DNA of 14,821 nucleotides from a virus, in the UHGV virus genome UHGV-1732640; one strand, 5' to 3'. The position numbers were made by a program, and so were the translations under genes. The notes beneath the pieces are model-generated. The model worked only from the letters and a program-made list of their open reading frames with translations. It ran no database searches and had not been told where the DNA came from. Below are positions 187-14,821 of the stretch, piece by piece. The number at the start of each line of letters is the position of its first letter. The first letter of the stretch is position 1.

Positions 187-627
187 TTAGTGTGGAAATA
201 TTTGTGATGTGCTCTGTATGTTTTCAGTAAAGAGTAATGAATTATCAAAGGTATAGTAATATCTTTTTTGTTCGTGGATATTTGTAACCCACCGAAAAAC
301 TCCTGCTTTAGCAAGGTTTCTTCTGTATTCCTGAAATGTGATCTCACTGGATTTCAGCTTATTAGAGGTCGTTTCTATAAGATGCCTATCCTTTGAAAAT
401 TTGACAGACACAATGTTTTTTAGGCCCTTTAATAACACTGTATTATCATTTTTTAATACAATATGAACATTATCTGTAGCTAAATAGTAAATGTAATGTG
501 AGACATTGTGACGTTTTAGCTCAGAATAAAACCATTGATAGTTTAAATCGTTTCGAACTTTATCAAATATTTGTTTAAAAATGACTACCTGATCCATAGA
601 TAAACCTTCCATATGGTATGAGGGCAC
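187..627 (-). CDS. Hypothetical accessory protein in AT-rich island (146 aa); possibly related to the YbcV/YdfO-type (DUF1398) proteins of E. coli cryptic prophages
   Basis: Intact 146-codon minus-strand ORF in a region of about 27-30% GC (hand count on 421-480) against about 58% in the structural genes (hand count on 3001-3060). Alternative in-frame starts at Met6 and Met11. Family assignment is from memory and position (between lysis side and small terminase, as in DLP12), not from a search. Confidence 0.55.
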
Positions 628-884: not shown

Positions 885-1091
885 ATGCATAAAGATCAAT
901 GTACTGAGGCCCCCTCCCAAGAGCAGGTTCGTGTAAAAACTATGCTTAATAGCACCATTTCGATGAGTTACCCGGATGTTATAATTGCATGTATAGAACA
1001 TCAAGTATCTCTGGAAGCATTCAGGGCAATTGAGGCAGCGTTAGTGAAGCACGATAAGAATACGAAGGATTATTCCCTGGTGGTTGATTGA
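885..1091 (+). CDS. Small hypothetical protein (68 aa), possibly YbcW-like
   Basis: ORF with GGAG about 10 nt upstream of the ATG; divergent from the 187-627 ORF; its size and position match the small ORF that sits before the Nu1 homolog in DLP12-type prophages. Identity is uncertain. Confidence 0.45.
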
Positions 1092-1377
1092 TCACCATAA
1101 CTGCTAACCATTCTGACCATTTCACAAGTGACAGAGTCAATATCGTCCAGTTCGGATGCTGGCTGCATTTCTGAAGATAAGGCATTTCGGTTCTCGTATT
1201 TTCCCCTCATGCTCGTCAGTCCTGCGCGTAGTAAGAAACAGGACACTCACACTAATTTGTGTGGGCATGCTGTGATGTCCTTCTGAATTATCCCCATGCC
1301 ATTATGTAAAGCTCTGTTTCAGATGCTCGTCACGGTTGTCAGGCTGTCGGGTCCTACCAGTGAGGGGCCCTGCCACG

Positions 1378-1389
1378 GGGCGGGAGCGT
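1378..1389. other. cosN-like cohesive-end core (candidate terminase nicking site)
   Basis: ACG|GGGCGGGAGCGT|CGCGG at 1375-1394 aligns to the lambda cos junction ACG|GGGCGGCGACCT|CGCGGG (8/12 in the 12-nt core, flanks conserved). It lies about 175 bp upstream of the small terminase start, as in lambda. Confidence 0.5.
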
Positions 1390-1438
1390 CGCGGAAAAAG
1401 GCTAGTTTTTGAAATTTCATTCGTCATCACCACTACTG

Positions 1439-1451
1439 TAATGTATTGATA
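1439..1451. promoter_or_regulatory. IHF-consensus match (cosB I1-like) centred in an imperfect inverted repeat
   Basis: TAATGTATTGATA matches YAANNNNTTGATW, the complement of IHF consensus WATCAANNNNTTR. It is flanked by inverted repeat ACTGTAAT (1434-1441) / ATTACAGT (1450-1457) and lies about 50 bp downstream of the cosN-like core in A/T-rich DNA. Confidence 0.35.
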
Positions 1452-1563
1452 TTACAGTGGTTTTATTTTTGTGGTGTCGATTTTGATTGTTTTTTGTTCA
1501 TCACTAACACCGTTTGCCTAAAGTTGTTCGCAAGATGCATGTTTAAAACATTCTGGAGCGGGT

Positions 1564-2058
1564 ATGGATCGAGAGTTAAAAAATCTGACGCTGAATATCA
1601 GTCAACTGGCGGCTCTGTCAGGTGTACATCGCCAGACTGCTGCGGCAAGGCTGCAAAATCTACCCGTTGCAGGGGGGCATGAAAGCAACCTCAAGCTTTA
1701 TCGGGGGGTTGATATTGTGTCGGCATTTCTGGCATTACCACCGCCGGTTGCAGAAGGCGAAATGGACGCGCATGAGCGCAAAGCCTGGTATCAGTCTGAA
1801 CGTGAGCGTCTTAAGTTCGAACAGGAAACGGCACAACTCATTCCGGCCAGTGATGTCAGACGGGAGTTTGCCATCTGGGCAAAAGCGGTCGTGCAGGTGC
1901 TGGAGACATTACCGGATATTCTTGAACGTGACTGCGGTCTGCAGCCTGCCGCTGTGAGCCGTGTTCAGTCCATTATTGATGATCTGCGCGATCAGATAGC
2001 CCTGCGGGTGACCGAAGCAGGTGCGGATGATGAGGAGGAATTACAGCGGGAGGAGTAA
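1564..2058 (+). CDS. Terminase small subunit (Nu1-like, N-terminal helix-turn-helix)
   Basis: 164 aa ORF directly upstream of and overlapping the large terminase (TAATG); GGAG 7 nt before the ATG; N-terminal HTH-like segment LNISQLAALSGVHRQTAAARLQ; acidic C-terminus; sits immediately downstream of the cos-like region. Confidence 0.75.
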   Translation: MDRELKNLTLNISQLAALSGVHRQTAAARLQNLPVAGGHESNLKLYRGVDIVSAFLALPPPVAEGEMDAHERKAWYQSERERLKFEQETAQLIPASDVRREFAIWAKAVVQVLETLPDILERDCGLQPAAVSRVQSIIDDLRDQIALRVTEAGADDEEELQREE

Positions 2059-4160
2059 TGCTGAATCAGGAAACCGCAAAGGCAGCACGAACCGATTCAG
2101 GTTATATCCTTCGCGCACCGAGACGAATGCGGGTTGCTGATGCCGTTGCTCAGTATATGCGGGTGCCCATGGGGGCAGGGAACTCAGTCCCGTGGGATCC
2201 GCTGGTGGCACCGTATGTTATTGAGCCGATGAACTGCCTGGCCTCGCGTGAATACGACGCAGTGATATTTGTTGGCCCGGCACGAACCGGCAAGACTATC
2301 GGCCTGATTGACGGCTGGGTGATTTACAACGTGATTTGCGATCCTGCTGATATGCTGATCATACAGATGACGGAGGAAAAAGCCCGCGAACACTCCAAAA
2401 AACGACTCGCCAGAACGTTTCGCGTCAGCCCGGAAGTGGTCAGTCGCCTGAGTCCGAACAAAAATGACAACAACGTTTATGACAGAACATTCCTTGCTGG
2501 TAACTACCTGAAAATCGGCTGGCCGTCAGTCAATATCATGTCCTCATCAGATTATAAATGCGTCGCGCTGACGGATTATGACCGTTTTCCGGAAGATATT
2601 GATGGCGAGGGGGATGCTTTCTCTCTTGCCTCAAAACGTACCACAACATTTATGTCCAGTGGTATGACGCTTGTGGAGAGTTCCCCCGGCAGGGATGTGA
2701 AGGATGTGAAATGGCGACGGACTTCACCGCATGAGGCTCCACCAACCACGGGGATACTGTCGCTCTATAACCGTGGCGATCGCCGTCGCTGGTACTGGCC
2801 TTGTCCACACTGTGGTGAGTATTTTCAGCCCTGCGGCGATGTGGTTGCTGGTTTCCGTGATATTGCCGATCCCGTGCTGGCAAGTGAGGCGGCTTATATT
2901 CAGTGTCCTTCCTGTTCAGGACGGATTATGCCTGAACAAAAACGTGAGCTGAACGGACGTGGGGTCTGGTTGCGGGATGGTGAATCCATCAATGCGGATG
3001 GCAGTCGTTATGGTGATCCCCGACGCTCACGTATTGCGTCATTCTGGATGGAGGGTCCGGCAGCTGCTTACCAGACACTCTCGCAACTCGTTTACAAACT
3101 GCTTACTGCAGAACAGGAATACGAGACAACCGGAAGTGAAGAAACACTCAAGACGGTTATCAATACCGACTGGGGATTACCTTATCTTCCCCGCGCCAGC
3201 ATGGAGCAACGAAAAAGTGAACTGCTTGAGCAGCGGGCAGAGCCAGTTCCTTCCCGCAGTGTGCCGGATGGCGTTAATTTCCTTGTGGCGACAGTGGATG
3301 TGCAGGCGGGACGTCATCGCCGTTTTGTGGTTCAGGTAACGGGCTATGGCAGCCGTGGCGAACGCTGGATTATTGATCGTTACAACATCACGCAGTCATT
3401 GCGCGGTGACAGCGACGGGGAGAGCCAGCGAATTGATCCGGCCAGCTATCCGGAAGACTGGGATGTCCTGCTGACGGATGTTTTTCATAAAAGCTGGCCG
3501 CTGGCCTCCGATCCTTCTCAACAAATGCGACTGATGGCAATGGCGGTGGACTCCGGCGGTGAAGACGGGGTCACTGATAATGCCTATAAATTCTGGCGTC
3601 GTTGCCGTCGTGATGGCCTTGGTAAACGTATTTACCTGTTTAAGGGCGACAGCATCCGGCGCGCAAAACTGATCACCCGTACATTCCCTGATAACACCGG
3701 ACGAACGGGCCGACGGGCGCAGGCCGCAGGTGATGTGCCGCTCTGGCTTCTTCAGACGGATGCACTGAAAGACCGGGTGAATAACGCGTTATGGCGTGAC
3801 TCGCCAGGTCCCGGCTATGTGCATTTCCCTGACTGGCTGGGGAGTTGGTTTTACGACGAACTGACGTATGAAGAGCGGAGCAGTGACGGGAAATGGAGTA
3901 AGCCAGGTCGCGGTGCCAACGAAGCTTTTGACCTGATGGTGTATGCCGAGGCTCTGGTCATTCTGCATGGATACGAAAAGATCCGCTGGCCGGATGCACC
4001 GGAGTGGGCGAGCCGGGAAACCTGGCTGGAGTGTGTCCCGGACAGTACCGAACCGTCACCCACACCGGAACCGGTATCCACGCCTGTTAAAAAACAAAAA
4101 CGGAAGAAAACAGTAACTGACGATGTTAACCCCTGGCTGACTTCCGGAGGATGGTTATGA
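2058..4160 (+). CDS. Terminase large subunit (lambda gpA family)
   Basis: 700 aa; Walker A-like GPARTGKT; CPHCGEYF Cys/His motif comparable to lambda gpA CPHCGEEQ; strong RBS GGGAGGAG; start overlaps the small terminase stop. Confidence 0.9.
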   Translation: MLNQETAKAARTDSGYILRAPRRMRVADAVAQYMRVPMGAGNSVPWDPLVAPYVIEPMNCLASREYDAVIFVGPARTGKTIGLIDGWVIYNVICDPADMLIIQMTEEKAREHSKKRLARTFRVSPEVVSRLSPNKNDNNVYDRTFLAGNYLKIGWPSVNIMSSSDYKCVALTDYDRFPEDIDGEGDAFSLASKRTTTFMSSGMTLVESSPGRDVKDVKWRRTSPHEAPPTTGILSLYNRGDRRRWYWPCPHCGEYFQPCGDVVAGFRDIADPVLASEAAYIQCPSCSGRIMPEQKRELNGRGVWLRDGESINADGSRYGDPRRSRIASFWMEGPAAAYQTLSQLVYKLLTAEQEYETTGSEETLKTVINTDWGLPYLPRASMEQRKSELLEQRAEPVPSRSVPDGVNFLVATVDVQAGRHRRFVVQVTGYGSRGERWIIDRYNITQSLRGDSDGESQRIDPASYPEDWDVLLTDVFHKSWPLASDPSQQMRLMAMAVDSGGEDGVTDNAYKFWRRCRRDGLGKRIYLFKGDSIRRAKLITRTFPDNTGRTGRRAQAAGDVPLWLLQTDALKDRVNNALWRDSPGPGYVHFPDWLGSWFYDELTYEERSSDGKWSKPGRGANEAFDLMVYAEALVILHGYEKIRWPDAPEWASRETWLECVPDSTEPSPTPEPVSTPVKKQKRKKTVTDDVNPWLTSGGWL

Positions 4161-4369
4161 ACGAGAATGATATCGAAGCCATGATTCAGCGTTATACGGA
4201 AGCTGAAATGGCGGTGCTGGACGGAAAATCCGTCACCTTTAATGGTCAGCAGATGACCATGGAAAACTTATCTGAGATCCGGCAGGGGCGGCAGGAGTGG
4301 GAGCGCCGCCTTGCGGCTCTGATTACACGACGACGGGGGCATCCCGGGTACCGGCTGGCGAGGTTCTGA
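4157..4369 (+). CDS. W: Head-tail connector / head-stabilising protein (gpW-like)
   Basis: 70 aa; C-terminal RRRGHPGY resembles lambda W C-terminus RRRGPAGFYV; position between large terminase and portal as in lambda; GGAGG 6 nt upstream; ATGA overlap with the terminase stop. The ATG at 4151 is too close to the RBS. Confidence 0.7.
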   Translation: MNENDIEAMIQRYTEAEMAVLDGKSVTFNGQQMTMENLSEIRQGRQEWERRLAALITRRRGHPGYRLARF

Positions 4370-5877
4370 TGGCAATTCTTGATGATGTGATTGGCGTTTT
4401 TTCACCAGGATGGAAAGCGGCAAGGCTGCGTTCCCGTGCGGTGATCCAGGCTTATGAGGCCGTAAAAACGACGCGGACACACAAAGCCCGGCGGGAAAAC
4501 CGAACTGCCGACCAGTTAAGCCAGTACGGGGCCGTGTCGTTACGTGAGCAGGCCCGTTACCTTGATAACAACCACGATCTGGTCATTGGTGTATTTGACA
4601 AGCTGGAAGAACGGGTGGTGGGGAAAAACGGGATTATTGTCGAGCCACATCCGGTATTACGCAATGGGGCCATTGCCCGTGACCTGGCTGCGGAGATTCG
4701 CACCCGATGGAGTGAATGGTCTGTCAGCCCGGAAGTCACCGGGCAGTTTACCCGTCCGATGCTGGAACGTCTGATGCTGCGTACCTGGCTGCGCGATGGT
4801 GAGGTGTTTGTCCAGATGGTTTCCGGGCGCATAAACAGCCTGACGCCTTCTGCCGGTGTTCATTTCTGGCTGGAGGCACTCGAGCCGGACTTTATTCCCA
4901 TGACCAGTGATGAGAGCAACAGGCTGAATCAGGGCGTGTTTGTTGATGACTGGGGGCGTCCCGAAAAATATCTGGTGTATAAAAGTCGTCCCGTATCCGG
5001 ACGGCAGATGGAAACCAAAGAAGTGGATGCAGAGCGAATGCTGCATCTTAAATTTGTTCGCCGTCTGCACCAGATGCGCGGGACGTCTTTGTTGTCCGGT
5101 GTGCTGATCCGCCTCAGTGCCCTGAAAGAGTATGAAGATTCTGAGCTGACTGCAGCAAGGATCGCCGCTGCTCTGGGGATGTACATCCGGAAAGGCGACG
5201 GGCAGAGCTATGAACCGGATGGTAATGGCAGCAAGGATAAGGAACGCGAGCTTACCATTCAGCCAGGCATTATTTACGACGATCTGAAACCCGGCGAAGA
5301 AATCGGAATGGTGAAGTCGGATCGTCCCAATCCTAACCTTGAAACTTTTCGTAATGGTCAGTTGCGTGCCGTGGCGGCGGGCAGTCGTCTGAGTTTTTCC
5401 AGTACGGCACGCAACTATAACGGCACTTACAGCGCCCAGCGTCAGGAGCTGGTTGAATCCACTGATGGCTACCTGATCCTGCAGGACTGGTTTATTGGTG
5501 CCGTCACCCGCCCGATGTATCGTGCCTGGCTGAAACAGGCTGTGGCATCCGGTGTTATCAGGCTACCCCGCGATCTTGACCGTTCTTCACTGTATACCGC
5601 GGTGTATTCCGGACCGGTGATGCCGTGGATTGACCCTGTTAAGGAGGCTGAGGCCTGGAAAATTCAGATTCGTGGTGGAGCAGCGACAGAATCAGACTGG
5701 GTACGTGCAGGTGGTCGTAATCCGAATGATGTCAAACGTCGGCGCAAGGCCGAAATTGATGAAAACCGCACGCTGGATCTGGTATTTGATACCGATCCGG
5801 CCAGTGATAAAGGAGGCAGCAGTGCCGCAACGAAACGACAAGAGCCGCAGCACACCGACGACCAGTCCGAAGAATAA
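4369..5877 (+). CDS. Portal protein (lambda gpB family)
   Basis: 502 aa from the ATG at 4369, which overlaps the W stop (TGATG) and has GAGG 5 nt upstream; the ORF extends upstream to 4297 but without a plausible start. Segment SRLSFSSTARNY resembles lambda B MSYSTARAS; position after W. Confidence 0.88.
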   Translation: MAILDDVIGVFSPGWKAARLRSRAVIQAYEAVKTTRTHKARRENRTADQLSQYGAVSLREQARYLDNNHDLVIGVFDKLEERVVGKNGIIVEPHPVLRNGAIARDLAAEIRTRWSEWSVSPEVTGQFTRPMLERLMLRTWLRDGEVFVQMVSGRINSLTPSAGVHFWLEALEPDFIPMTSDESNRLNQGVFVDDWGRPEKYLVYKSRPVSGRQMETKEVDAERMLHLKFVRRLHQMRGTSLLSGVLIRLSALKEYEDSELTAARIAAALGMYIRKGDGQSYEPDGNGSKDKERELTIQPGIIYDDLKPGEEIGMVKSDRPNPNLETFRNGQLRAVAAGSRLSFSSTARNYNGTYSAQRQELVESTDGYLILQDWFIGAVTRPMYRAWLKQAVASGVIRLPRDLDRSSLYTAVYSGPVMPWIDPVKEAEAWKIQIRGGAATESDWVRAGGRNPNDVKRRRKAEIDENRTLDLVFDTDPASDKGGSSAATKRQEPQHTDDQSEE

Positions 5878-5890
5878 TTCCTGGTTCAGG

Positions 5891-7849
5891 ATGCAGGCTG
5901 GTCACCAGAGTGACGCGGATATTTATATTTATGACGAGATTGGTTTCTGGGGTGTTACAGCGAAGCAGTTTATCAGTGATCTGAATGCACTGGGCGATAT
6001 CACCCACATTAATCTCCATATCAATTCACCGGGTGGCGATGTCTTTGAAGGCATCGCCATTTTTAATGCACTGAAAACACATGGTGCGTCCATTACCGTT
6101 TATGTCGACGGTGTGGCGGCGTCAATGGCGTCGGTCATTGCGATGGTGGGAAACCCGGTCATTATGCCGGAAAACACCTTCATGATGATTCATAAACCAT
6201 TTGGCTTTACGGGCGGTGATGCGGAGGACATGCGCACCTATGCCGACCTGCTCGATAAGGTTGAGGCGGTTCTGTTACCCGCTTATGCACAGAAAACCGG
6301 GAAAACCACCGATGAAATTGCTGCCATGCTGGCGGATGAGACCTGGATGTCCGGTGCCGAATGTCTGGCACATGGATTTGCTGATCAGGTGACGCCAGCC
6401 GTTAAGGCAATGGCATGTATTCAGTCAAAACGTACAGAGGAATTTAAAAAGATGCCGGAATCCATTCGAAACATGATTACTCCGCCACGCAACAGTGCTC
6501 CACGCGTACAGGATGATGAACCTGCAGCCTCCCGGACGCCAGTGCAGGCAGCAGCACCCGTGGTGGATGAAAACAGTATCCGTGCGCAGGTACTGGCAGA
6601 GCAAAAAGCGCGTGTAAACGGTATTAATGATCTGTTTGCCATGTTTGGCGGGCGTTATCAGACGCTGCAGGCTCAGTGTCTTGCCGATCCTGAATGTTCG
6701 CTGGAGCAGGCCCGCGAAAAGCTGTTGAACGAGATGGGGCGCGAGTCCACGCCATCCAATAAAAATACACCGGCTCATATTTATGCCGGTAACGGTAATT
6801 TTGTGGGGGACGGGATCCGCCAGGCGCTGATGGCGCGTGCCGGATTTGAAAAAACCGAACGTGATAATGTCTACAACGGGATGACCCTGCGTGAATATGC
6901 CCGTATGTCACTGACTGAACGGGGTATTGGGGTTTCCAGTTATAACCCGATGCAGATGGTCGGTGCGGCGTTCACACACAGTACGTCTGACTTCGGTAAT
7001 ATTCTGCTGGATGTTGCGAACAAAGCCATTCTGCAGGGCTGGGAAGATGCTCCTGAAACCTATGAACAGTGGACGCGGAAAGGTCAGTTGTCTGATTTTA
7101 AAATTGCCCATCGTGTGGGTATGGGGGGCTTCAGTGCTCTGCGTCAGGTGCGTGAAGGGGCGGAATATAAATACGTCACCACCGGAGATAAACAGGCCAC
7201 TATTGCACTGGCGACCTATGGCGAGCTGTTCAGTATCACCCGTCAGGCCATTATCAATGATGATCTGAATATGCTGACCGATGTCCCGATGAAACTGGGC
7301 CGTGCGGCGAAATCCACTATTGCCGATCTGGTTTATGCCATTCTGACGTCTAACCCGAAAATCTCCACAGATAATGTAAGTCTGTTCGATAAAGCGAAAC
7401 ATGCAAACGTACTGGAGAGCGCTGCAATGGACGTGGCATCGCTGGATAAAGCCCGCCAGTTGATGCGCGTTCAGAAAGAGGGGGAGCGTCATCTGAATAT
7501 TCGTCCTGCGTTCGTACTGGTACCGACGGCGATGGAGTCTGTTGCTAACCAGGTCATTCGCTCCTCAAGTGTCAAGGGGGCTGACATTAACGCCGGTATT
7601 ATTAACCCGGTGAAAGATTTTGCGACCGTTATTGCAGAGCCTCGTCTTGATGATAACAGCCAGACCACCTTCTACCTGGCTGCGTCAAAAGGCTCCGATA
7701 CGATTGAAGTGGCTTATCTCAACGGTGTGGATACGCCATATATTGATCAGATGGAGGGCTTCAGTGTGGATGGCGTGACAACGAAAGTGCGTATTGACGC
7801 CGGTGTCGCGCCAGTTGATCACCGCGGTCTGGTGAAATGTACGGTGTAA
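5891..7849 (+). CDS. Prohead protease (ClpP-like, S14-type) fused to linker/scaffold region and HK97-fold major capsid protein
   Basis: One uninterrupted frame. N-terminal about 200 aa has ClpP-like motifs (IYIYDEIG, NSPGGDVFEGIAIFNAL, AASMASVIAMVG, MMIHKP); the C-terminal about 330 aa resembles an HK97-type major capsid protein. Start uncertain: ATG 5891 has a weak RBS, while in-frame GTG 5822 follows AAGGAGG by 5 nt. Confidence 0.85.
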   Translation: MQAGHQSDADIYIYDEIGFWGVTAKQFISDLNALGDITHINLHINSPGGDVFEGIAIFNALKTHGASITVYVDGVAASMASVIAMVGNPVIMPENTFMMIHKPFGFTGGDAEDMRTYADLLDKVEAVLLPAYAQKTGKTTDEIAAMLADETWMSGAECLAHGFADQVTPAVKAMACIQSKRTEEFKKMPESIRNMITPPRNSAPRVQDDEPAASRTPVQAAAPVVDENSIRAQVLAEQKARVNGINDLFAMFGGRYQTLQAQCLADPECSLEQAREKLLNEMGRESTPSNKNTPAHIYAGNGNFVGDGIRQALMARAGFEKTERDNVYNGMTLREYARMSLTERGIGVSSYNPMQMVGAAFTHSTSDFGNILLDVANKAILQGWEDAPETYEQWTRKGQLSDFKIAHRVGMGGFSALRQVREGAEYKYVTTGDKQATIALATYGELFSITRQAIINDDLNMLTDVPMKLGRAAKSTIADLVYAILTSNPKISTDNVSLFDKAKHANVLESAAMDVASLDKARQLMRVQKEGERHLNIRPAFVLVPTAMESVANQVIRSSSVKGADINAGIINPVKDFATVIAEPRLDDNSQTTFYLAASKGSDTIEVAYLNGVDTPYIDQMEGFSVDGVTTKVRIDAGVAPVDHRGLVKCTV

Positions 7850-7871
7850 ACGTCGCAGACAACAACTCTGA

Positions 7872-7891
7872 TGGCCCGTAAGGGCTTTTTT
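7872..7891 (+). terminator. Rho-independent terminator-like hairpin after the capsid gene
   Basis: GGCCC-GTAA-GGGC stem-loop followed by a 7-T run, 22 nt after the capsid stop; a second GC hairpin (7904-7920) follows without a T-tract. Confidence 0.5.
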
Positions 7892-7935
7892 TGTACCTGA
7901 AATCAGCCCCTGAACGGGGCTGTGCGGAGACAGTT

Positions 7936-8259
7936 ATGGCAAAGAATTTTGTAGAAGAAGGAAAAACGGTGGCGATTGTTGCCAGTGCAGCCATCAGCAG
8001 CGGAGATCTGGTGCAGGTGGGTGATGTTTTTGCGGTGGCGCTGACCGATATTCCACAGGGTGAAACAGGCGACGGCATGACCGAAGGTGTGTTTATGCTG
8101 CCTAAGCTGAAAACGGATGACATGAAAACGGGTAAGAAGGTTTATCTGAAGTCCGGAAAAGTTCAGCTGACTAACAGCGGCTCTGATCCGCTGGTCGGGG
8201 TTGTCTGGGCAGATGCCGGAACCAGTGCAGAAGAAGTGCCGGTAAAACTCAATGTCTGA
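7936..8259 (+). CDS. Small head protein at the lambda FI/D position (107 aa); possible DUF2190-like decoration or head-completion protein
   Basis: ORF with GGAGA 5 nt before the ATG at 7936 (the ORF-track start at 7891 lies inside the terminator). Located between the capsid gene and the FII-like gene. Functional assignment is tentative. Confidence 0.6.
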   Translation: MAKNFVEEGKTVAIVASAAISSGDLVQVGDVFAVALTDIPQGETGDGMTEGVFMLPKLKTDDMKTGKKVYLKSGKVQLTNSGSDPLVGVVWADAGTSAEEVPVKLNV

Positions 8260-8527
8260 TCCCTTTTCCCGGCTGGCAGCGCATATGGATGCGATCACGG
8301 TCAGAAAGATGGGAAAGACAGCCTCGATTAATGATGCCGATATGACTGTGATCCCGGGAGAAACACTGGCAGAGCTGAATGCTCTGTCCGGACCTGCGGT
8401 CTCTCTGGTGGTGTTTTCTTCGGGATACCGCCCACGGCGCGGGGATCGCGTTGTTTATGACGGACAACAATGGACGGTCACACGGCATGAACGTTTTAAC
8501 GGTAAGCCAATGATCTTTATTGAGTAA
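8252..8527 (+). CDS. Head-tail joining protein (gpFII-like)
   Basis: 91 aa; N-terminus MSDPFSRLAAHMDAITVRKMGKTAS aligns with lambda FII MADFDNLFDAAIARADETIRGYMGTSA; shared RRGD...W.V.R pattern; lies immediately before Z; 8-nt overlap with the preceding gene. Confidence 0.7.
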   Translation: MSDPFSRLAAHMDAITVRKMGKTASINDADMTVIPGETLAELNALSGPAVSLVVFSSGYRPRRGDRVVYDGQQWTVTRHERFNGKPMIFIE

Positions 8528-8538
8528 AGAGGTGTGGG

Positions 8539-9117
8539 ATGAAGGGGCTTGAGAATGCCATCCGTAATCTGAACAGCCTTGATACCCGTATGGTGCCACA
8601 GGCCAGCGCATGGGCGATAAACCGTGTGGCACAGAAAGCGGTCTCGGTCGCCACCCGGCAGGTTGCCGGGAATACCGTTGCGGGAGATAACCAGGTGAAA
8701 GGGATCCCCCTGAAACTGGTACGTCAGCGTGTCCGGGTGTTTAAAGCCAGTCCGTCAGGAAAAATGACGGCCAGGATCCGCGTTAACCGGGGCAATCTGC
8801 CCGCTATTAAGCTGGGGACAGCCCGGGTCAGACTGGCCCGGCGTGGTGGAAAACTGCAGTACCGTGGCAGTGTGCTGAAGGTGGGTAAATATCTTTTCCG
8901 GGATGCGTTTATTCAGCAACTGGCGAATGGTCGCTGGCATGTGATGCGGCGTATTGATGGCAAAAATCGTTACCCCATTGATGTGGTGAAAGTCCCGCTG
9001 TCCGGACCGCTGACACAGGCATTTGAAGATGCCCGCGACCGCATTATTGCTGCGGAAATGCCGAAACAGCTGGGGTATGCACTGAAACAACAACTGAGGT
9101 TATGGCTGACCCGATGA
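8539..9117 (+). CDS. Z: Tail completion protein Z
   Basis: 192 aa, same length as lambda Z, with collinear matches (KGLE..NL, AINRVA, RIRVNRGNLPAIKLG, FIQQLANGRWHVMRR, GKNRYPIDVVK, LGYAL.QQLR); AAGAGG RBS 6 nt upstream. Confidence 0.92.
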   Translation: MKGLENAIRNLNSLDTRMVPQASAWAINRVAQKAVSVATRQVAGNTVAGDNQVKGIPLKLVRQRVRVFKASPSGKMTARIRVNRGNLPAIKLGTARVRLARRGGKLQYRGSVLKVGKYLFRDAFIQQLANGRWHVMRRIDGKNRYPIDVVKVPLSGPLTQAFEDARDRIIAAEMPKQLGYALKQQLRLWLTR

Positions 9118-9515
9118 ACCGACATACACAAATCCGCCAGGCCGTACTGGCACGCCTTCGGGAACAGTGTGGAGACAGCGCCACGTTTTTTGACGGGCTT
9201 CCGGCATTTATTGATGCGCAGGAACTGCCTGCCGTGGCGGTGTGGCTGAGTGATGCTCAGTACACCGGAAAAATGACGGATGAAGATGACTGGCAGGCTG
9301 TTCTGCATATTGCTGTCTTCATCCGGGCACAGGCACCGGATTCAGAGCTGGATATGTGGATGGAGAGCACCATTTTCCCGGCTCTGAATGATATACCGGC
9401 ACTTTCCGGACTCATCGACACCCTGATCCCTCTCGGTTTTAACTATCAACGTGATAATGAGATGGCCACCTGGGCGATGGCGGAAATCACGTACCAGATC
9501 ACGTACACGAATTAA
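9114..9515 (+). CDS. U: Tail terminator protein U
   Basis: Collinear with lambda U (ATFFDG.PA, LPAVAV.L, YTG, LHI.VF, PDSELD.WMES.I.P, IPALS.LI); the start at ATG 9114 (MNRHTQIRQAVL vs lambda MKHTELRAAVL) overlaps the Z stop (ATGA). Confidence 0.9.
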   Translation: MNRHTQIRQAVLARLREQCGDSATFFDGLPAFIDAQELPAVAVWLSDAQYTGKMTDEDDWQAVLHIAVFIRAQAPDSELDMWMESTIFPALNDIPALSGLIDTLIPLGFNYQRDNEMATWAMAEITYQITYTN

Positions 9516-9526
9516 AGGAGGTGGCA

Positions 9527-10270
9527 ATGACCACACCAAATCCACTGGCAAAAACGAAAGGTGCGGGAACGACGTTCTGGATGTACACCGGCAAGGGCGA
9601 TGCGTTTGCGAACCCTTTATCGGACACTGACTGGCTGCGTCTTGCGATGGTGAAGGATCTGCAACCTGGCGAAATGACCGCTGATGCAGAAGATGACACT
9701 TATCTCGATGATGAAGATGCAGACTGGAAAACGACAACCCAGGGGCAGAAATCCGTCGGTGATACTTCGGCGACGCTGGCCTGGCGTCCGGGTGACAGCG
9801 GGCAGAAAAAACTGGTTCAGTTGTTCGACTCCGGTGAAGTCTGCGCGTTTCGTATCAAATATCCCAACGGCACTGTTGATGTTTTCCGTGGCTGGCTGAG
9901 CTCACTGGGTAAAACCATTGCCTCAAAAGACGTGATGACCCGCACAGTGAAAATTAGCGGTGTGGGGCGTCCGCATCTGGCAGAGGAAGGCACTGAAACA
10001 GTGAGCGTTACCGGGCTGACGGTGGCACCGGCATCTGCCAGTGTAAAAGTGGGAGCAACCACCACGCTGACCTTTACAGTAAAACCTGACGGAGCCAGTG
10101 ACAAAGCGATCAGTGTGCATTCGACAGATCCACAGACTGCCACGGTGACCCTGAACGGGCTTGTGGCCACGGTGAAAGGCGTGAAGCAGGGCAGTGTCAG
10201 CATTGTGGGCATGACTTCTGACGGCGATTTTGTGGCCGTGGCTGCGGTGGCTGTCAGCGCCGCAGGTTAA
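9527..10270 (+). CDS. V: Major tail tube protein V with C-terminal Ig-like (Big_2-type) domain
   Basis: Near-collinear with lambda V (KGAGTT.W.Y, ANPLSD.DW.RLA.VKDL.PGE.TA, DDSYLDDEDADW, GDTS.TLAW.PG, NGTVDVFRGW.SS.GK, TRTVK...VGRP); AAGGAGG RBS 6 nt before ATG 9527. Confidence 0.92.
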   Translation: MTTPNPLAKTKGAGTTFWMYTGKGDAFANPLSDTDWLRLAMVKDLQPGEMTADAEDDTYLDDEDADWKTTTQGQKSVGDTSATLAWRPGDSGQKKLVQLFDSGEVCAFRIKYPNGTVDVFRGWLSSLGKTIASKDVMTRTVKISGVGRPHLAEEGTETVSVTGLTVAPASASVKVGATTTLTFTVKPDGASDKAISVHSTDPQTATVTLNGLVATVKGVKQGSVSIVGMTSDGDFVAVAAVAVSAAG

Positions 10271-10290
10271 CAGGACGATACTCATCATTT

Positions 10291-10314
10291 GCCCCGGTTA
10301 TCCGGGGCTTTTTT
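10291..10314 (+). terminator. Rho-independent terminator-like hairpin after V
   Basis: GCCCCGG-TTAT-CCGGGGC stem-loop followed by TTTTTT, 21 nt after the V stop and just upstream of the G RBS. Confidence 0.55.
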
Positions 10315-10330
10315 GCAGGTGGAGAACATG

Positions 10331-10717
10331 ATGTTTCTGAAACAGGGCTCGTTTAATTATGAAAAGCAGTCCGTGGTGCTCAGTGAGCTGTCCGGGCTGC
10401 AGAGAATTGAATATCTGGCGTTTGTTCAGCAGCGAACGGCAAAGTTTGATGCCGAAGAGGGAGAACTGCCGGAGGCTGAACGACAGATTGCTTTTCTGCG
10501 GATGGGGATGGATATCAATGCCTGGCTGGTTTCCCGCTCACTGTGGAATGCGGAACAGTCTCAGGATGTTGAGACGCTTTGCGCATCCGTTATTACAACA
10601 TGGTCGTATGATGCCCTGGGAGCGGGGGCGGAGATGGTTCTGTCGCTGAGCGGTATGGGAGCCATTGAGAATGCCGGGGATTTGGAGCATGAGGTGCTGA
10701 CGCCGGAAAAGTCCTGA
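10331..10717 (+). CDS. G: Tail assembly chaperone G
   Basis: N-terminus MFLKQGSFNYEKQSVVLSELSGLQRIEYLAF parallels lambda G MFLKTESFEHNGVTVTLSELSALQRIEHLAL; GGAGA 5 nt before ATG 10331. Confidence 0.88.
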   Translation: MFLKQGSFNYEKQSVVLSELSGLQRIEYLAFVQQRTAKFDAEEGELPEAERQIAFLRMGMDINAWLVSRSLWNAEQSQDVETLCASVITTWSYDALGAGAEMVLSLSGMGAIENAGDLEHEVLTPEKS

Positions 10718-11055
10718 CGCGGGAAATGCAGTTTGTCATGCGGCTTGCCCGGGAGTTCCGGCGGGCAGACTGGCGGCGGATGCTGTCGGAAATGTCGGCC
10801 ACTGAGCTTGGTGAATGGGGCGATTATTTCCAGATGCAGAGCTTCAGTGATGTGTGGATGGATGCGCAGTTTGCCTCGCTGAAGGCATTGATCGTGAGAA
10901 TGGTGTCCGGTAGCAGTGATGCTGCGGTGGCTGATTTCAGCCTTTTACCGGAAGAGAACGGGATACCGGAGCGAACGGACGAAGAACTGATGCATCTTGG
11001 GGAAGGTATTTCCGGAGGTGTGCGTTATGGACCAGATAGCCAACCTGGTCATTGA
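10331..11055 (+). CDS. T: Tail assembly chaperone G-T fusion, predicted to arise by a programmed -1 ribosomal frameshift near 10705-10711
   Basis: The T frame is -1 relative to G and is open from 10693, overlapping the last 7 G codons. The only A-rich candidate slip site is G GAA AAG (10705-10711), against lambda G GGA AAG. The ATG at 10726 has no RBS, consistent with T being made only as a fusion. The arrangement is conserved in lambda-like tail modules. Confidence 0.6.
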
Positions 11056-14000
11056 TTTGGGGATTGATGCGGCAGAGTTTAAAAATGAAATTCCCCGTAT
11101 CAAAAACCTTCTGAATGGTGCAGCCAGCGATGCAGAACGGTCTTCTGCCCGTATGCAGCGTTTTATGGAGCGTCAGACTCAGGCCGCCCGGCAGACAATG
11201 CAGGCGGCTTCTTCGGCTGCAACAGCCGCATCCGTCCATGCGCAGACGGTGGAGAAGAGCGCACAGGCTCATGAACGCATGGCCCGCGAGGTGGAGCAAA
11301 CCCGCCAGCGTATGGAGGCACTGAGCCAGAAAATGCGCGAGGAACAGGCGCAGGCCATGGCTCTGGCGGAGGCTCAGGATAAAGCGGCTGCCGCGTTTTA
11401 TCGTCAGATTGACAGTGTGAAACAGGCCAGTGCGGGACTGCAGGAATTACAGCGTATTCAGCAGCAGATCCGACAGGCCAGAAACAGTGGCGGGATTGGT
11501 CAGCAGGATTATCTGGCGCTGATTTCTGAGGTTACGGCGAAAACCGGTGTTCTTACGCAGGCTGAGGCAGAGGCTACCCGACAGAAAGTGGCGTTTATCC
11601 GTCAGCTTAAAGAGCAGGCAACCCGCCAGAATCTTTCTTCTTCTGAGTTGCTTCGTGCTAAGGCTGCCCAGCTGGGGGTAAGCAGTGCTGCAGAAGTGTA
11701 TATCCGCAAAATGGAGCAGGCAGGAAAAGCCACGCATTCGCTGGGTCTGAAAAGTGCAGCGGCCCGCCAGGAGATAGGCGTTCTGATAGGTGAACTGGCT
11801 CGCGGCAATTTAGGTGCGCTGAGGGGATCCGGGATAACGCTGGCTAACCGTGCCGGATGGATAGACACACTGATGTCACCGAAAGGCATGATGCTGGGCG
11901 GGGTTATTGGCGGTATTGCCGCGGCCGTCTATGGTCTGGGTAAAGCCTGGTATGATGGTCAGAGGGAGGGGGAAGAATTTAACCGCCAGTTGTCGCTGAC
12001 GGGGCATTATGCCGGAGTCACTGCCGGGCAGCTGTGGACGCTCAGTCGTGCTATTTCCGGGAATGGTATTACGCAACATGCTGCAGCCGGTGCGCTGGCT
12101 CAGGTGGTGGGGAGTGGTGCATTTCGTGGAAACGATATCGGTATGGTGGCGAGAGCTGCCGCACAGATGGAGCGATCGGTTGGCCAGTCGGTCAGCGATA
12201 CCATAAATCAGTTTAAGCGGCTGAAGGATGATCCTGTAAATGCCGCGAAGGCTCTGGACAATGAGCTGCATTTTCTTACTGCCACTCAGCTTGAGCAGAT
12301 ACGCGTCCTTGGGGAACAGGGGCGGTCCAGTGATGCGGCACGGATAGCCATGTCTGCACTGGCAGAGGAAACCGGTCGGCGTACTGCGGATATTGATAAT
12401 AACCTCAATGCGCTGGGCAGTACGCTGAAGTATCTGTCTGATTTATGGAGTCGTTTCTGGGATGCGGCCATGAATATTGGTCGTGAAGACTCGCTGGATG
12501 AACAGATTTCCGCTTTACAGGAGAAAGTGTCGCGGGCGAAAAGACTCCCCTGGACGGCATCATCTTCTCAGGTTGAGTACGATCAGCAGCGTCTTAACGA
12601 GCTTCAGGAGAAAAAACGCCAGAAGGATTTGCAGGATGCAAAAGAGCAGGCAGAGCGGAATTATCAGGAGCAACAGAAACGCCGTAATGCTGAAAATGCT
12701 GCACTGAACCGGATGAATGAAACGGAAGCAGCACGACATCAGCGTGAAATTGCGCGTATTAATTCCATGCAGTACGCCGATCAGGCTGTCAGGGATGCGG
12801 CGATACAACGTGAAAATGAACGTTACGAGAAAGCCCTGGCATCCGGTAAGAAAAAAACACGCGAACCCCGTAATGATGAGGCCACCCGGTTATTGCTGCA
12901 GTACAGTCAGCAACAGGCACAGGTGGAAGGACAGATTGCTGCTGCCAGACAGTCAGCAGGCATTGCCACGGAAAGGATGACAGAAGCGCATAAACAGCTT
13001 CTGGCTCTGCAGCAGCGCATCAGCGACCTGGACGGGAAAAAACTGACGGCAGATGAAAAGAGTGTGCTGGCCCGTAAAGATGAACTGATTCAGGCACTGA
13101 CGCTGCTGGATGTAAAACAGCAGGAGCTTCAGAAACAGACGGCACTCAACGAGCTGAAGAAAAAAACAATTCAGCTGACCAGTCAACTGGCTGAAGAAGA
13201 GCGCGCTCAGCGTCAGCAACATGACCTGGATATCGCCACGGTGGGTATGGGTGATCAGCAGCGGCAGCGATATCAGGTACAACTGAGTCTTCGCCAGAAA
13301 TACCAGCAACAGCTGGAGCAGTTGAGGCGGGATAGTGAGCAGAAAGGAACATATAACACGGATGACTACAGAAAGGCCGAGCAGGCGCTGACGGAGAGCC
13401 TGAACCGACAACTGAATGAGAATCGCCGTTACTGGCAACAGCTTGAAGTTGTGCAGGGTAACTGGAAAAACGGAGTCCTGCGTGCATTTCAGGATTTTAC
13501 CGTGGATGCAGATAATACGGCAGGAACAGCAGAACAGGGGTTCTCGTCAGCCTTCAGCAACATGGGAAATGGCCTGGCAACTTTTGTCACTACCGGCAAA
13601 CTCAATTTCAAATCCTTCACCTCTTCTGTGCTGTCAGATATGGCGAAAATCCTGGCGCAGGCAACCATGATGAAATCGATAAAAGGGATTGGCAGTGTAC
13701 TGGGATTTGATCTCAGCAGCCTTTCCCTGAATGCCAATGGGGGGATTTATCAGTCTGCTGATTTGAGTCGTTACAGTGGCACGGTGGTTAACCGTCCGAC
13801 GTTTTTTGCTTTTGCAAAAGGCGCGGGTGTGATGGGGGAAGCGGGACCTGAAGCCATTCTGCCACTGCGTCGTGGTGCTGACGGTAAGCTGGGGGTTGTG
13901 GCGGATATTGGTGGTTCAGGTATGGCGATGTTTGCCCCGCAGTACAACATCGAGATCAATAACGATGGCACGAACGGGCAGATAGGTCCGGCTGCCCTGA

Positions 14001-14092
14001 AGGTGGTTTATGACCTCGGGAAAAAAGCGGCAGCGGACTTTATACAACAGCAGGCCCGTGATGGTGGTCGGTTAAGTGGAGCATATCGGTAA
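11027..14092 (+). CDS. H: Tail tape measure protein H
   Basis: 1021 aa from ATG 11027 (GGAGG 8 nt upstream; the ORF-track start at 10997 is a TTG). N-terminus LVIDLGIDAAEF resembles lambda H LVVDLSLDAARF; C-terminus NNDGTNGQIGPAALKVVYD...RDGG is nearly identical to lambda H; long Q/E/R/A-rich central region. Confidence 0.92.
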   Translation: MDQIANLVIDLGIDAAEFKNEIPRIKNLLNGAASDAERSSARMQRFMERQTQAARQTMQAASSAATAASVHAQTVEKSAQAHERMAREVEQTRQRMEALSQKMREEQAQAMALAEAQDKAAAAFYRQIDSVKQASAGLQELQRIQQQIRQARNSGGIGQQDYLALISEVTAKTGVLTQAEAEATRQKVAFIRQLKEQATRQNLSSSELLRAKAAQLGVSSAAEVYIRKMEQAGKATHSLGLKSAAARQEIGVLIGELARGNLGALRGSGITLANRAGWIDTLMSPKGMMLGGVIGGIAAAVYGLGKAWYDGQREGEEFNRQLSLTGHYAGVTAGQLWTLSRAISGNGITQHAAAGALAQVVGSGAFRGNDIGMVARAAAQMERSVGQSVSDTINQFKRLKDDPVNAAKALDNELHFLTATQLEQIRVLGEQGRSSDAARIAMSALAEETGRRTADIDNNLNALGSTLKYLSDLWSRFWDAAMNIGREDSLDEQISALQEKVSRAKRLPWTASSSQVEYDQQRLNELQEKKRQKDLQDAKEQAERNYQEQQKRRNAENAALNRMNETEAARHQREIARINSMQYADQAVRDAAIQRENERYEKALASGKKKTREPRNDEATRLLLQYSQQQAQVEGQIAAARQSAGIATERMTEAHKQLLALQQRISDLDGKKLTADEKSVLARKDELIQALTLLDVKQQELQKQTALNELKKKTIQLTSQLAEEERAQRQQHDLDIATVGMGDQQRQRYQVQLSLRQKYQQQLEQLRRDSEQKGTYNTDDYRKAEQALTESLNRQLNENRRYWQQLEVVQGNWKNGVLRAFQDFTVDADNTAGTAEQGFSSAFSNMGNGLATFVTTGKLNFKSFTSSVLSDMAKILAQATMMKSIKGIGSVLGFDLSSLSLNANGGIYQSADLSRYSGTVVNRPTFFAFAKGAGVMGEAGPEAILPLRRGADGKLGVVADIGGSGMAMFAPQYNIEINNDGTNGQIGPAALKVVYDLGKKAAADFIQQQARDGGRLSGAYR

Positions 14093-14421
14093 TGGAGACG
14101 TTTCACTGGAAAGTGCGCCCGGATATGAATGTGGTATCAGAGCCGAAAGTGGTGACAGTGAAGCTGGGCGATGGTTATGAACAGCGTCGTGCGGCGGGAC
14201 TGAATAACCAGTTGTCGATTTACAGCGTGACGATACGTGTTCGTAAATGTGAACACCCATCTTTAAAAGCCTTTCTGGAACGGCACGGTGGCGTCCGCGC
14301 ATTTCAGTGGACGCCACCTTATGACTGGAAGCCGATCAGGGTGGTTTGTCGTAAATGGTCGGCAAGCGTGGGGGCGCTGTGGATAACCATAACGGCAGAT
14401 TTTGAACAGGTCGTGGCATAG
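14092..14421 (+). CDS. M: Minor tail protein M
   Basis: 109 aa, same length as lambda M, collinear (FHWKV.P.M, GDGY.QR, YSVT, HGG...F.WTPPY.W, KW, FEQVV); start overlaps the H stop (TAATG). Confidence 0.92.
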   Translation: METFHWKVRPDMNVVSEPKVVTVKLGDGYEQRRAAGLNNQLSIYSVTIRVRKCEHPSLKAFLERHGGVRAFQWTPPYDWKPIRVVCRKWSASVGALWITITADFEQVVA

Positions 14422-14430
14422 GAGGCTCTG

Positions 14431-14821
14431 ATGCAGGATATTCCACAGGAAACACATCATGAGACGACACGCCTCACTCAGTCAGCCCAGGTGGTGCTCT
14501 GGGAAATCGATCTGACAGAGGTCGGTGGTGAACGTTATTTTTTCTGTAATGAGCAGAACGAAAAAGGTGAGCCGGTTACCTGGCAGGGGCGGCAGTATCA
14601 GGCATACCCCATTCAGGGGACGGGATTTGAACTGAATGGCAAGGGCAGTGCTGCCCGTCCGACACTGACGGTTTCTAACCTGCACGGCATGGTCACCGGG
14701 ATGGCGGAAGACCTGCAGAGTCTGGTCGGCGGAACGGTGGTCCGGCGTAAGGTTTACGCCCGTTTTCTGGATGCGGTGAACTTCGTCAACGGAAACAGTT
14801 ACGCCGATCCGGAGCAGGAGG
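14431..14821 (+). CDS. L: Minor tail protein L (5' portion; runs off the window)
   Basis: Open frame from ATG 14431 (GGAGG 5 nt upstream) to the window end; translation MQDIPQETHHETTRLTQSAQVVLWEIDLTEVGGERYFFCNEQNEKGEPVTWQGRQYQAYPIQG... is nearly identical to the lambda L N-terminus. Confidence 0.92.
   Translation, partial: MQDIPQETHHETTRLTQSAQVVLWEIDLTEVGGERYFFCNEQNEKGEPVTWQGRQYQAYPIQGTGFELNGKGSAARPTLTVSNLHGMVTGMAEDLQSLVGGTVVRRKVYARFLDAVNFVNGNSYADPEQE

Follow-up and report, generated by a model that had tools for sequence, protein, structure and literature searches.

Genes on both sides of the site

The window, by which we mean the whole stretch of 14,821 nucleotides analysed here (UHGV virus genome UHGV-1732640), carries in its first part two genes with relatives at the right end of lambda. 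One of them (187-627, minus strand) encodes a DUF1398 protein (Pfam DUF1398, E=3.9e-46) of the lambdap78/DLP12 ybcV family, a right-end accessory gene. It belongs to the same PHROG (413) as lambdap78, which is annotated 'head protein' in lambda, and the same DUF1398 family is annotated upstream of cos in phage Tritos. The other one (885-1091, plus strand, PHROG 657) is ybcW-like and homologous to lambdap79, the last gene of lambda (78% identity, 68 of 68 amino acids, E=3e-40); it would be the last open reading frame before the virion right end, as lambdap79 is in lambda. A first-pass annotation of the window had spoken of a moron island at this place. That term is a loose one, the genes being conserved homologues of the lambda right-end genes p78 (DUF1398) and p79.

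Further downstream, terS (1564-2058, plus strand) encodes a small terminase of 164 amino acids from the DUF1441 family (Pfam DUF1441). The protein was assigned to PHROG 141, 'terminase small subunit', with E=2e-72, and to PHROG 57 with E=6.6e-9, and it is 98.8% identical to the TerS proteins of phages Ayreon and phi458. Unlike the small terminase of lambda, it is a DUF1441 protein, and BLASTP detected no similarity between it and Nu1. A comparison with PDB sequences did not give a match either. With regard to an N-terminal winged helix-turn-helix like that of gpNu1, weak HTH matches were obtained for residues 3-33, and the single-sequence AlphaFold model, with a pLDDT of 52.8, was too poor for a fold search. 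Adjoining terS, terL (2058-4160, plus strand) encodes a large terminase of 700 amino acids that belongs to the lambda gpA family and contains both gpA domains, GpA_ATPase (PF05876, E=8.6e-72) and GpA_nuclease (PF20454, E=1.1e-85); its identity to lambda gpA is 25% over 623 amino acids (E=5e-19). A portal gene of the lambda family and a fused ClpP-capsid gene follow. Across the site, the gene order is that of a lambda right end, then cos, then a lambda left end.

Sequence elements from cosQ to R1

All subsites of lambda cos found a counterpart between these two groups of genes, in the order of lambda and with similar spacing: cosQ, cosN, I2, a putative R3, I1, and a putative R2 and R1. The heptamer GGGTCCT at 1349-1355 (plus strand) is the exact sequence of lambda cosQ, known as a packaging-termination signal (PMC4669245, PMC4856287). 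It starts 29 bp before the predicted nick, 1 bp closer than in lambda, where this distance is 30 bp. Among 47 unique relatives, the cosQ heptamer was changed in none or one, and the DNA just upstream was highly variable.

The cosN-like segment (1376-1391, plus strand) reads CG/GGGCGGGAGCGT/CG, the slashes marking the predicted nicks, and agrees with lambda in its left half and in both CG flanks. In a slightly wider frame, positions 1375-1394 read ACGGGGCGGGAGCGTCGCGG, which is ACG/GGGCGGGAGCGT/CGCGG. The first-pass annotation had proposed a lambda-like cos on the grounds of this junction, and the computational alignment to lambda cos bore the proposal out: GGGCGGGAGCGT and the corresponding lambda sequence GGGCGGCGACCT (NC_001416) are identical at 8 of 12 positions, with bp 1-6 the same and mismatches at bp 7, 8, 9 and 11, and neither the left flank ACG nor the right flank CGCGG differs from lambda. 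The CG dinucleotides beside the two predicted nicks are spaced by 12 nt, exactly as in lambda. The two-fold symmetry of cosN extends over 8 of 16 positions, as compared to 10 of 16 in lambda.

An I2-like spacer, CGGAAAAAGGCTAGTTTTTGAAATTTCATT (1392-1421, plus strand), follows and contains A5, T5 and A3T3 tracts. Such a segment rich in A/T tracts is a feature in common with lambda, for which I2 has been described (PMC4856287): the A+T content of the I2-like segment bp 18-46 is 72%, that of lambda I2 73%. The spacer was nearly invariant in the 47 relatives and is common to the window and phage cdtI up to window position 1418. Neither I2 nor cosQ nor the R repeats had been part of the first-pass annotation.

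Three octamers matching TCRWCACY lie between this spacer and terS. The first one, TCATCACC (1424-1431), forms the core of an R3-like repeat (1422-1437, plus strand), a putative TerS binding site, to which the block TCATCATCATCAT corresponds in the alignment with related cos sites. Its core corresponds to bp 47-54 from the end; the equivalent R3 of lambda occupies bp 50-65. The second one is inverted, TCGACACC on the minus strand (1473-1480), and resembles R2. Its GTGTCGA core was conserved in relatives, and the block ATGTCGAA/GTGTCGAA is kept across the family of cos sites that go with a DUF1441 TerS. The third one, TCATCACT (1498-1505, plus strand), comes after a T6 tract and resembles R1; the corresponding block, TGTTCATCAC/TGTTCGACA, is conserved throughout the same cos family. 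One and the same 12-mer, TTCGACACTGAA, is present in R1 and in the inverted R2 of Gifsy-2.

TCRWCACY has five matches in the 14.8-kb window, three of which fall inside 82 bp with the orientations +, - and + (1424, 1473 and 1498), a count that is partly circular since these three sites had themselves served to define the motif. Independent support for the repeats comes, for this reason, from the homologous blocks in the relatives. By analogy with lambda, the three sites may correspond to R3 (forward), R2 (inverted) and R1 (forward) of cosB and be bound by TerS, although their sequence is unrelated to that of the lambda R sites (TCRWCAC in the window, CGTTTCC-type in lambda).

The core of the predicted IHF site I1 (1439-1451) is located on the minus strand. 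The top strand reads TAATGTATTGATA there, and the minus strand, TATCAATACATTA, is a perfect match to the consensus WATCAANNNNTTR, whereas lambda I1 has one mismatch. An A-rich tract, AAAAATAAAA (window 1461-1470), is found 9 nt 5' of the core on the same strand. Strong IHF sites, for example H' of lambda attP, have this arrangement of an A-rich tract 5' of the core. Over 40-47 unique relatives, the specified positions of the consensus were conserved and the N positions were variable. An IHF-like core was also present at the same place in the cosB types of cdtI, CP-1639, Chris1 and PhiR47_1. These observations support the predicted IHF element as the equivalent of cosB I1, situated between R3 and the inverted R2 as in lambda. 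The resemblance to lambda cosB had already been pointed out in the first-pass annotation, together with the location of the IHF match inside an inverted repeat and in A/T-rich DNA, and these points held: the DNA around the IHF site contains 66-72% A+T, as compared to 48% for the whole window.

The inverted repeat itself, ACTACTGTAAT/ATTACAGTGGT (1432-1461, with no strand assigned), has arms of 11 nt (1432-1442 and 1451-1461) that are 91% complementary. We considered whether it could be a selected hairpin or a symmetric operator and rejected this idea. The inner 7 bp (CTGTAAT/ATTACAG) were the only conserved part of the arms and overlap the IHF consensus, and the outer pairs varied between relatives without compensation, from which we conclude that the inverted repeat is not an independent element.

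Counted from the predicted left end, with 1378 as bp 1, the elements of the window occupy bp 47-54 (R3), 62-74 (I1), 96-103 (R2) and 121-128 (R1), and the ATG of terS is at bp 187. The lambda equivalents are at bp 50-65, 79-91, 109-124 and 151-166, with the terS ATG at bp 191. In both cases the subsites have the same order and orientation, and cos lies about 190 bp upstream of terS, to which a gpA-family terL is joined. The cosB region of the window is more compact than that of lambda. From centre to centre, R3 and R2 are separated by 49 bp, as compared to 59 bp in lambda, which is approximately one helical turn less, and R2 and R1 by 25 bp, as compared to 42 bp.

How much of this likeness could be due to chance depends on what is counted. 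A match to the lambda junction at 16 of 20 positions, as observed here, also turned up at some position in 14 of 500 dinucleotide-shuffled windows (2.8%), and the IHF consensus is expected 0.46 times per window and was found twice, so that one such consensus is close to the chance expectation. Since both the junction match and the IHF consensus are weak when taken alone, the case rests on their context. An accidental likeness to lambda cos, with headful (pac) packaging or packaging from some other site, would have to account for the joint occurrence of an exact cosQ at a fitting distance, the correct strand, the 187 bp to terS, the R3-I1-R2-R1 layout and a TerL of the gpA family, which is implausible. 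It would also have to account for a cosQ-N20-cosN frame that recurs across Enterobacterales, for an exact 21-mer in at least 120 viral contigs, and for phage genome records that end at the site. The combination of strand, location 187 bp upstream of the terS ATG, cosQ and record starts is far beyond chance, and we regard the accidental explanation as effectively refuted. With a probability of about 90%, we read window 1349-1511 as the cos, or cohesive-end site, of an E. coli prophage that is lambda-like and of the mEp460 type. What was seen directly in this analysis are the elements in the sequence with their arrangement and conservation, the families to which the genes belong, and the fact that deposited phage genomes have their ends at the same place.

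Predicted virion ends and cleavage

The 12-nt 5' overhang predicted for this cos is GGGCGGGAGCGT (1378-1389), with nicks at 1377/1378 in the top strand and at 1389/1390 in the bottom strand. In GenBank, phages cdtI (AB285204) and Tritos (OV696610) have records that open with GGGCGGGAGCGTCGCGGAAAAAGGCTAGTTTTT, which corresponds to window position 1378, and the Tritos record closes with ...GGGTCCTCCCGGTGGGGGCCCCTGCCACG (...CCACG), which corresponds to position 1377. The record of Hafnia phage yong2 stops directly 5' of the equivalent CGCGG, at the position of the predicted bottom-strand nick. For cdtI and Tritos, these ends are the starts of deposited records and may have been measured or chosen by analogy; the papers on Tritos (PMC9928086) and on mEp460_4F5 (PMC6969025) make no mention of cos ends. 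The sole match in a literature search for the 12-mer or its complement was an unrelated paper on a mammalian promoter.

The position of these record ends, together with the lambdap79 homologue upstream (885-1091) and terS and terL downstream, agrees with the earlier proposal that the window spans the join between the right and the left virion end. A cohesive end distinct from those of lambda, 21 and phi80 had been proposed as well. The sequence does differ, but it is not new, cdtI and Tritos having the same one. The ends of the phage described here and of lambda would not anneal perfectly, since their overhangs differ in sequence. Sites of this kind have been thoroughly characterised, and the present cohesive-end sequence is already known in the sense that it marks the ends of deposited phage genomes.

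The site could also be a genuine cos whose nick positions or overhang length do not follow the 12-nt pattern of lambda, for example with a shorter overhang or a shifted bottom nick. Variation in length does occur in relatives: the conserved flanks CACG and CGCGG are separated by 10 nt in CP-1639 and by 11 nt in VT1-Sakai, a variant that was also present in 17 IMG/VR contigs, and a 12-nt overhang should therefore not be assumed for the whole family. For the distantly related Cr-LKS3, the TerS of which belongs to the same family, 9-nt 5' cohesive ends were reported (PMC9303873). The symmetry of cosN, weaker than in lambda, would fit such a deviation too. In the window, however, the CG flanks have the exact 12-nt spacing of lambda, the records of cdtI and Tritos open at bp 1, and yong2 ends just before the equivalent CGCGG. 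The distance from cosN to R3 is likewise similar to the one in lambda, where it sets the placement of the nicks (PMC9026076). We consider a deviating cut unlikely and retain the staggered 12-nt nicking of lambda as the prediction. For the related mEp213 group, the authors of the LLS study infer a 12-nt 5' overhang, with the advice of M. Feiss (PMC12315714), and the LLS record annotates its first 12 nt, GGGCGGCGCGCT, as cohesive end.

A cosN shorter by 3 bp was found in LR595868. As a natural variant it was discarded, because it had no match in IMG/VR as compared to at least 120 matches of the intact form. The shortening probably reflects either a change private to this record or an error of assembly at the DNA end.

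The sequence could further be intact in appearance and yet out of use, as a relic in a defective prophage that does not produce virions. The visible part of the element is restricted to 14.8 kb, and E. coli S1-CAM-02-A (NZ_CP145707), the cos region of which is 100% identical, has an IS3 insertion in the right-end region, at a distance of about 1 kb on the upstream side. This identity to a chromosomal copy is matched by an identity of 99%, from position 1539 on, to plaque-forming phages, and the open reading frames of terS, terL, portal and protease-capsid are full length. Moreover, the function of cos belongs to the sequence, even where a given copy is silent. An unused relic appears to us even less likely than a displaced cut.

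How proteins would bind, where exactly the nicks would fall and how long the overhang would be can be described for a functional cos in the window after the model of lambda. The small terminase of the DUF1441 family (1564-2058) would bind the three repeats with the core TCRWCAC (R3 in plus, R2 in minus and R1 in plus orientation), and host IHF would bend the DNA at its perfect consensus site in the interval between R3 and R2. This arrangement may then anchor the gpA-family large terminase (2058-4160) over cosN, where it would introduce the staggered nicks, at 1377/1378 in the top strand and at 1389/1390 in the bottom strand. Packaging would run rightward from terS. On arrival at the next cos, cosQ (1349-1355) is expected to let the translocating terminase recognise and cut it, so that cosQ and cosN together would terminate packaging.

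Relatives and packaging specificity

By its sequence, the window belongs to the lambdoid coliphages mEp460, Ayreon, phi458 and vB_EcoS-569R4, with which it shares the type of cos including cosB, a TerS that is 98-99% identical and a structural module that is 98-99% identical. Ayreon and mEp460, both of which form plaques, have 99% identity to the window from position 1539 to 14821, and with vB_EcoS-569R4 the same identity is already seen from 1189 on. The records of this group start shortly before terS or at other places, with cos unannotated. The authors of the Ayreon study predicted cos packaging from the phylogeny of TerL only (PMC5764929). With public records of mEp460-type phages opened arbitrarily and without an annotated cos, the main use of the present assignment lies in annotation: it fixes the ends and the orientation of the virion genome for mEp460-type prophages.

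The site is common. Of 5426 complete E. coli genomes, 2113 (approximately 39%) contained part or all of the cos region, and the exact cosQ-cosN 21-mer, CACGGGGCGGGAGCGTCGCGG, occurred in at least 120 IMG/VR contigs. In the 47 unique copies of the window type, cosQ, I2, the R cores and the specified IHF positions were invariant or nearly so. In an alignment of 11 cos regions from phages with a TerS of the DUF1441 type, cosQ, cosN, CGCGG and GGCTAGTTTTT were present in all of them, and so were a TCATCA-rich R3, a TTGAT core, ATGTCGAA at R2 and a T-tract followed by TGTTCATCA at R1. Over representative Enterobacterales genomes, the frame GGGTCCT-N20-CG/GGGCGG-N6/CGCGG combined a constant left half with at least 10 different right halves. 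Matches of the genome scan in high-GC genomes (Streptomyces and others) came without I2 or cosB context and were discarded as chance matches.

The cos sites of mEp213/LLS (GGGCGGCGCGCT) and of the Gifsy type resemble that of the window in the associated genes, a DUF1441 TerS, a gpA TerL and a fused protease-capsid head gene, as well as in the cosQ-N20-cosN frame, in I2 (GGCTAGTTTTT) and in the R3-I1-R2-R1 layout. They differ from it in the right half of cosN, in R3, which is TCATCATCATCAT in these phages and TCATCACCAC in the window, and in a shorter distance between cos and terS (130 bp).

The DNA of cdtI and Tritos agrees completely with the window over the 20 bp before the predicted nick (CCTGCCACG), over the 12-mer GGGCGGGAGCGT and over 33 bp at the start of the left end, and their terL DNA is about 86% identical beyond the first ~100 bp. 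What is replaced in these two phages is cosB with its R repeats, terS (41.7% amino acid identity) and the start of terL (~33 codons). With cdtI, the similarity covers window 1345-1418, is lost over cosB, terS and these ~33 terL codons, and comes back at 2157. Judged by analogy with lambda-like phages, the cosN shared with the window would be followed by another specificity cassette in cdtI and Tritos.

In hybrids of lambda and 21, the C-terminus of TerS pairs with the N-terminus of TerL. Lambda, 21 and N15 have further provided a functional map in which TerL recognises cosN and cosQ and TerS recognises cosB (PMC4669245, PMC9026076). The mosaic breakpoints between the window and cdtI match this map: the cutting site (cosQ-cosN-I2) appears to travel with the body of TerL, and the recognition site (cosB) with terS and the N-terminus of TerL. 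Lambda and 21 form a similar pair, with the same cosQ and cosN and a diverged cosB and TerS recognition domain (PMC4669245), as seen here for the window and cdtI/Tritos. For the lambda/21 pair the discrimination between cassettes was measured, whereas the window and the cdtI type were compared here by sequence.

The first-pass annotation had expected the four differences to lambda in the cosN core to alter the specificity of the terminase. Our data speak against this. All four differences fall within bp 7-12, the right half of cosN, and this half shows free natural variation: in lambda-like phages these positions commonly vary, in N15 at 9 and 12 and in Gifsy-1 at 8, 9 and 11, and changes in bp 7-12 did not measurably affect cos cleavage in experiments of the Feiss laboratory (PMC4669245). 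The terminases of lambda and N15 are without specificity for cosN, their specificity residing in the interaction of TerS with cosB (PMC4669245). Moreover, at least four different types of cosB/TerS occur together with the cosQ-cosN-I2 of the window, and the window-type cosB occurs with another right half of cosN, GGGCGGTAGCGG, at another locus (L185). A distinct packaging specificity of the phage described here is likely, and by the same analogy it would be due to cosB and TerS and not to cosN. The locus illustrates clearly, in natural sequences, the modular organisation of cos that was worked out with lambda, 21 and N15. No new question arises from it, since variation in the right half of cosN and exchange of cosB specificities were both documented before.

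A further step, which we propose tentatively and to which we would give slightly less than even odds, is that the mEp460-type cosB, with its TCRWCAC repeats on both sides of a perfect IHF site, makes up a cassette for packaging specificity together with the DUF1441 TerS and the N-terminal ~33 codons of TerL. At least four such cassettes would be interchangeable, each with its own specificity as in the case of lambda and 21. In E. coli prophages, these cassettes would be placed behind one invariant cosQ-cosN-I2 and combined with a shared TerL body. If this holds, the shared cosN would let one TerL cut otherwise unrelated elements, among them a satellite-like island present in another of the loci (L025).

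cosN and cosB types in related cos regions

A 'Proteobacteria' MAG from soil (JAGTSE010000010.1, 7252-7297) carried a window-type cosB (TCATCACCAC...) together with a different cosN right half, GGGCGGTAGCGG. It is an example showing that the right half of cosN assorts independently of the cosB type.

Another unusual arrangement was seen in contig L025 (IMGVR_UViG_2574179916_000005), where the identical 21-mer used to search IMG/VR occurred on the same strand at 92-112 and at 8227-8247, placing two cos sites 8.1 kb apart. The first cos was of the window type and was followed by terS and by a terL truncated past the ATPase domain (331 aa). Downstream of the latter came, in this order, an integrase gene, genes for a Bro-N protein, an AAA_25 protein and SSB, and a terminator. 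The second cosQ-cosN was located 3' of this terminator, was accompanied by a cdtI-like cosB and preceded a gene for a ClpP-capsid fusion along with another DUF1441 gene. The stretch looks like an integrase-bearing island or a second element that would have inserted in terL with its own cos and the same cosN.

Shortened forms of cosN

In the virion-derived record LR595868.1 (mEp460_4F5, 1-25), which opens 5 nt 5' of the predicted nick, cosN read GGGCGGGAGCGCGG and was 3 bp shorter than the intact form. This short version had no match in IMG/VR, whereas the intact form had at least 120; it probably either arose as an artefact of assembly at the physical end of the DNA or is a mutation private to this record.

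Shorter spacings were also found 5' of terS, where the conserved flanks, CACG and CGCGGAAAAAGG, enclosed 11 nt (GGGCGGGCGGG) in VT1-Sakai and 10 nt (GGGCGGGCGG) in CP-1639, compared with 12 nt in the intact form. Further relatives (L189-L205) had 11 or 10 nt at this place as well. The 11-nt form is real, since 17 IMG/VR contigs have it. With such a spacing, the overhang could be shorter, the right flank shifted or the cos defective.

Features around the window cos

The segment at window 1518-1555 (CTAAAGTTGTTCGCAAGATGCATGTTTAAAACATTC), located past R1 and ahead of the start codon of terS, contained a palindrome (1525-1550) with ATGCAT at its centre. The segment was nearly invariant among window-type relatives and was kept in PhiR47_1-type cos regions, too, despite their different cosB. 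It could serve as a further binding site for a protein or as a signal for translation.

A second perfect match to the IHF consensus, TATCAAATATTTG, was present at window 561-573 (+) within the DUF1398 gene; it lacked supporting context and its occurrence is consistent with chance expectation. Further downstream, a single 739-aa ORF (window 5630-7849) encoded a fusion of ClpP-like protease and major-capsid domains, the same head-gene arrangement as that reported for lambdoid phages of the Gifsy-2 and mEp213 type (PMC12315714).

cos regions in chromosomes and MAGs

The genome of E. coli S1-CAM-02-A (NZ_CP145707), whose cos region showed 100% identity, carried a transposase of the IS3 family (1481-2709) with the DUF1398 gene on one side and the lambdap79-like gene on the other. 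Contigs with enterobacterial lambda-like cos regions of the cdtI and mEp213 types also occurred in MAGs labelled 'Veillonella parvula' and 'Geobacteraceae'. Their assignment to these unrelated taxa most likely reflects binning contamination.
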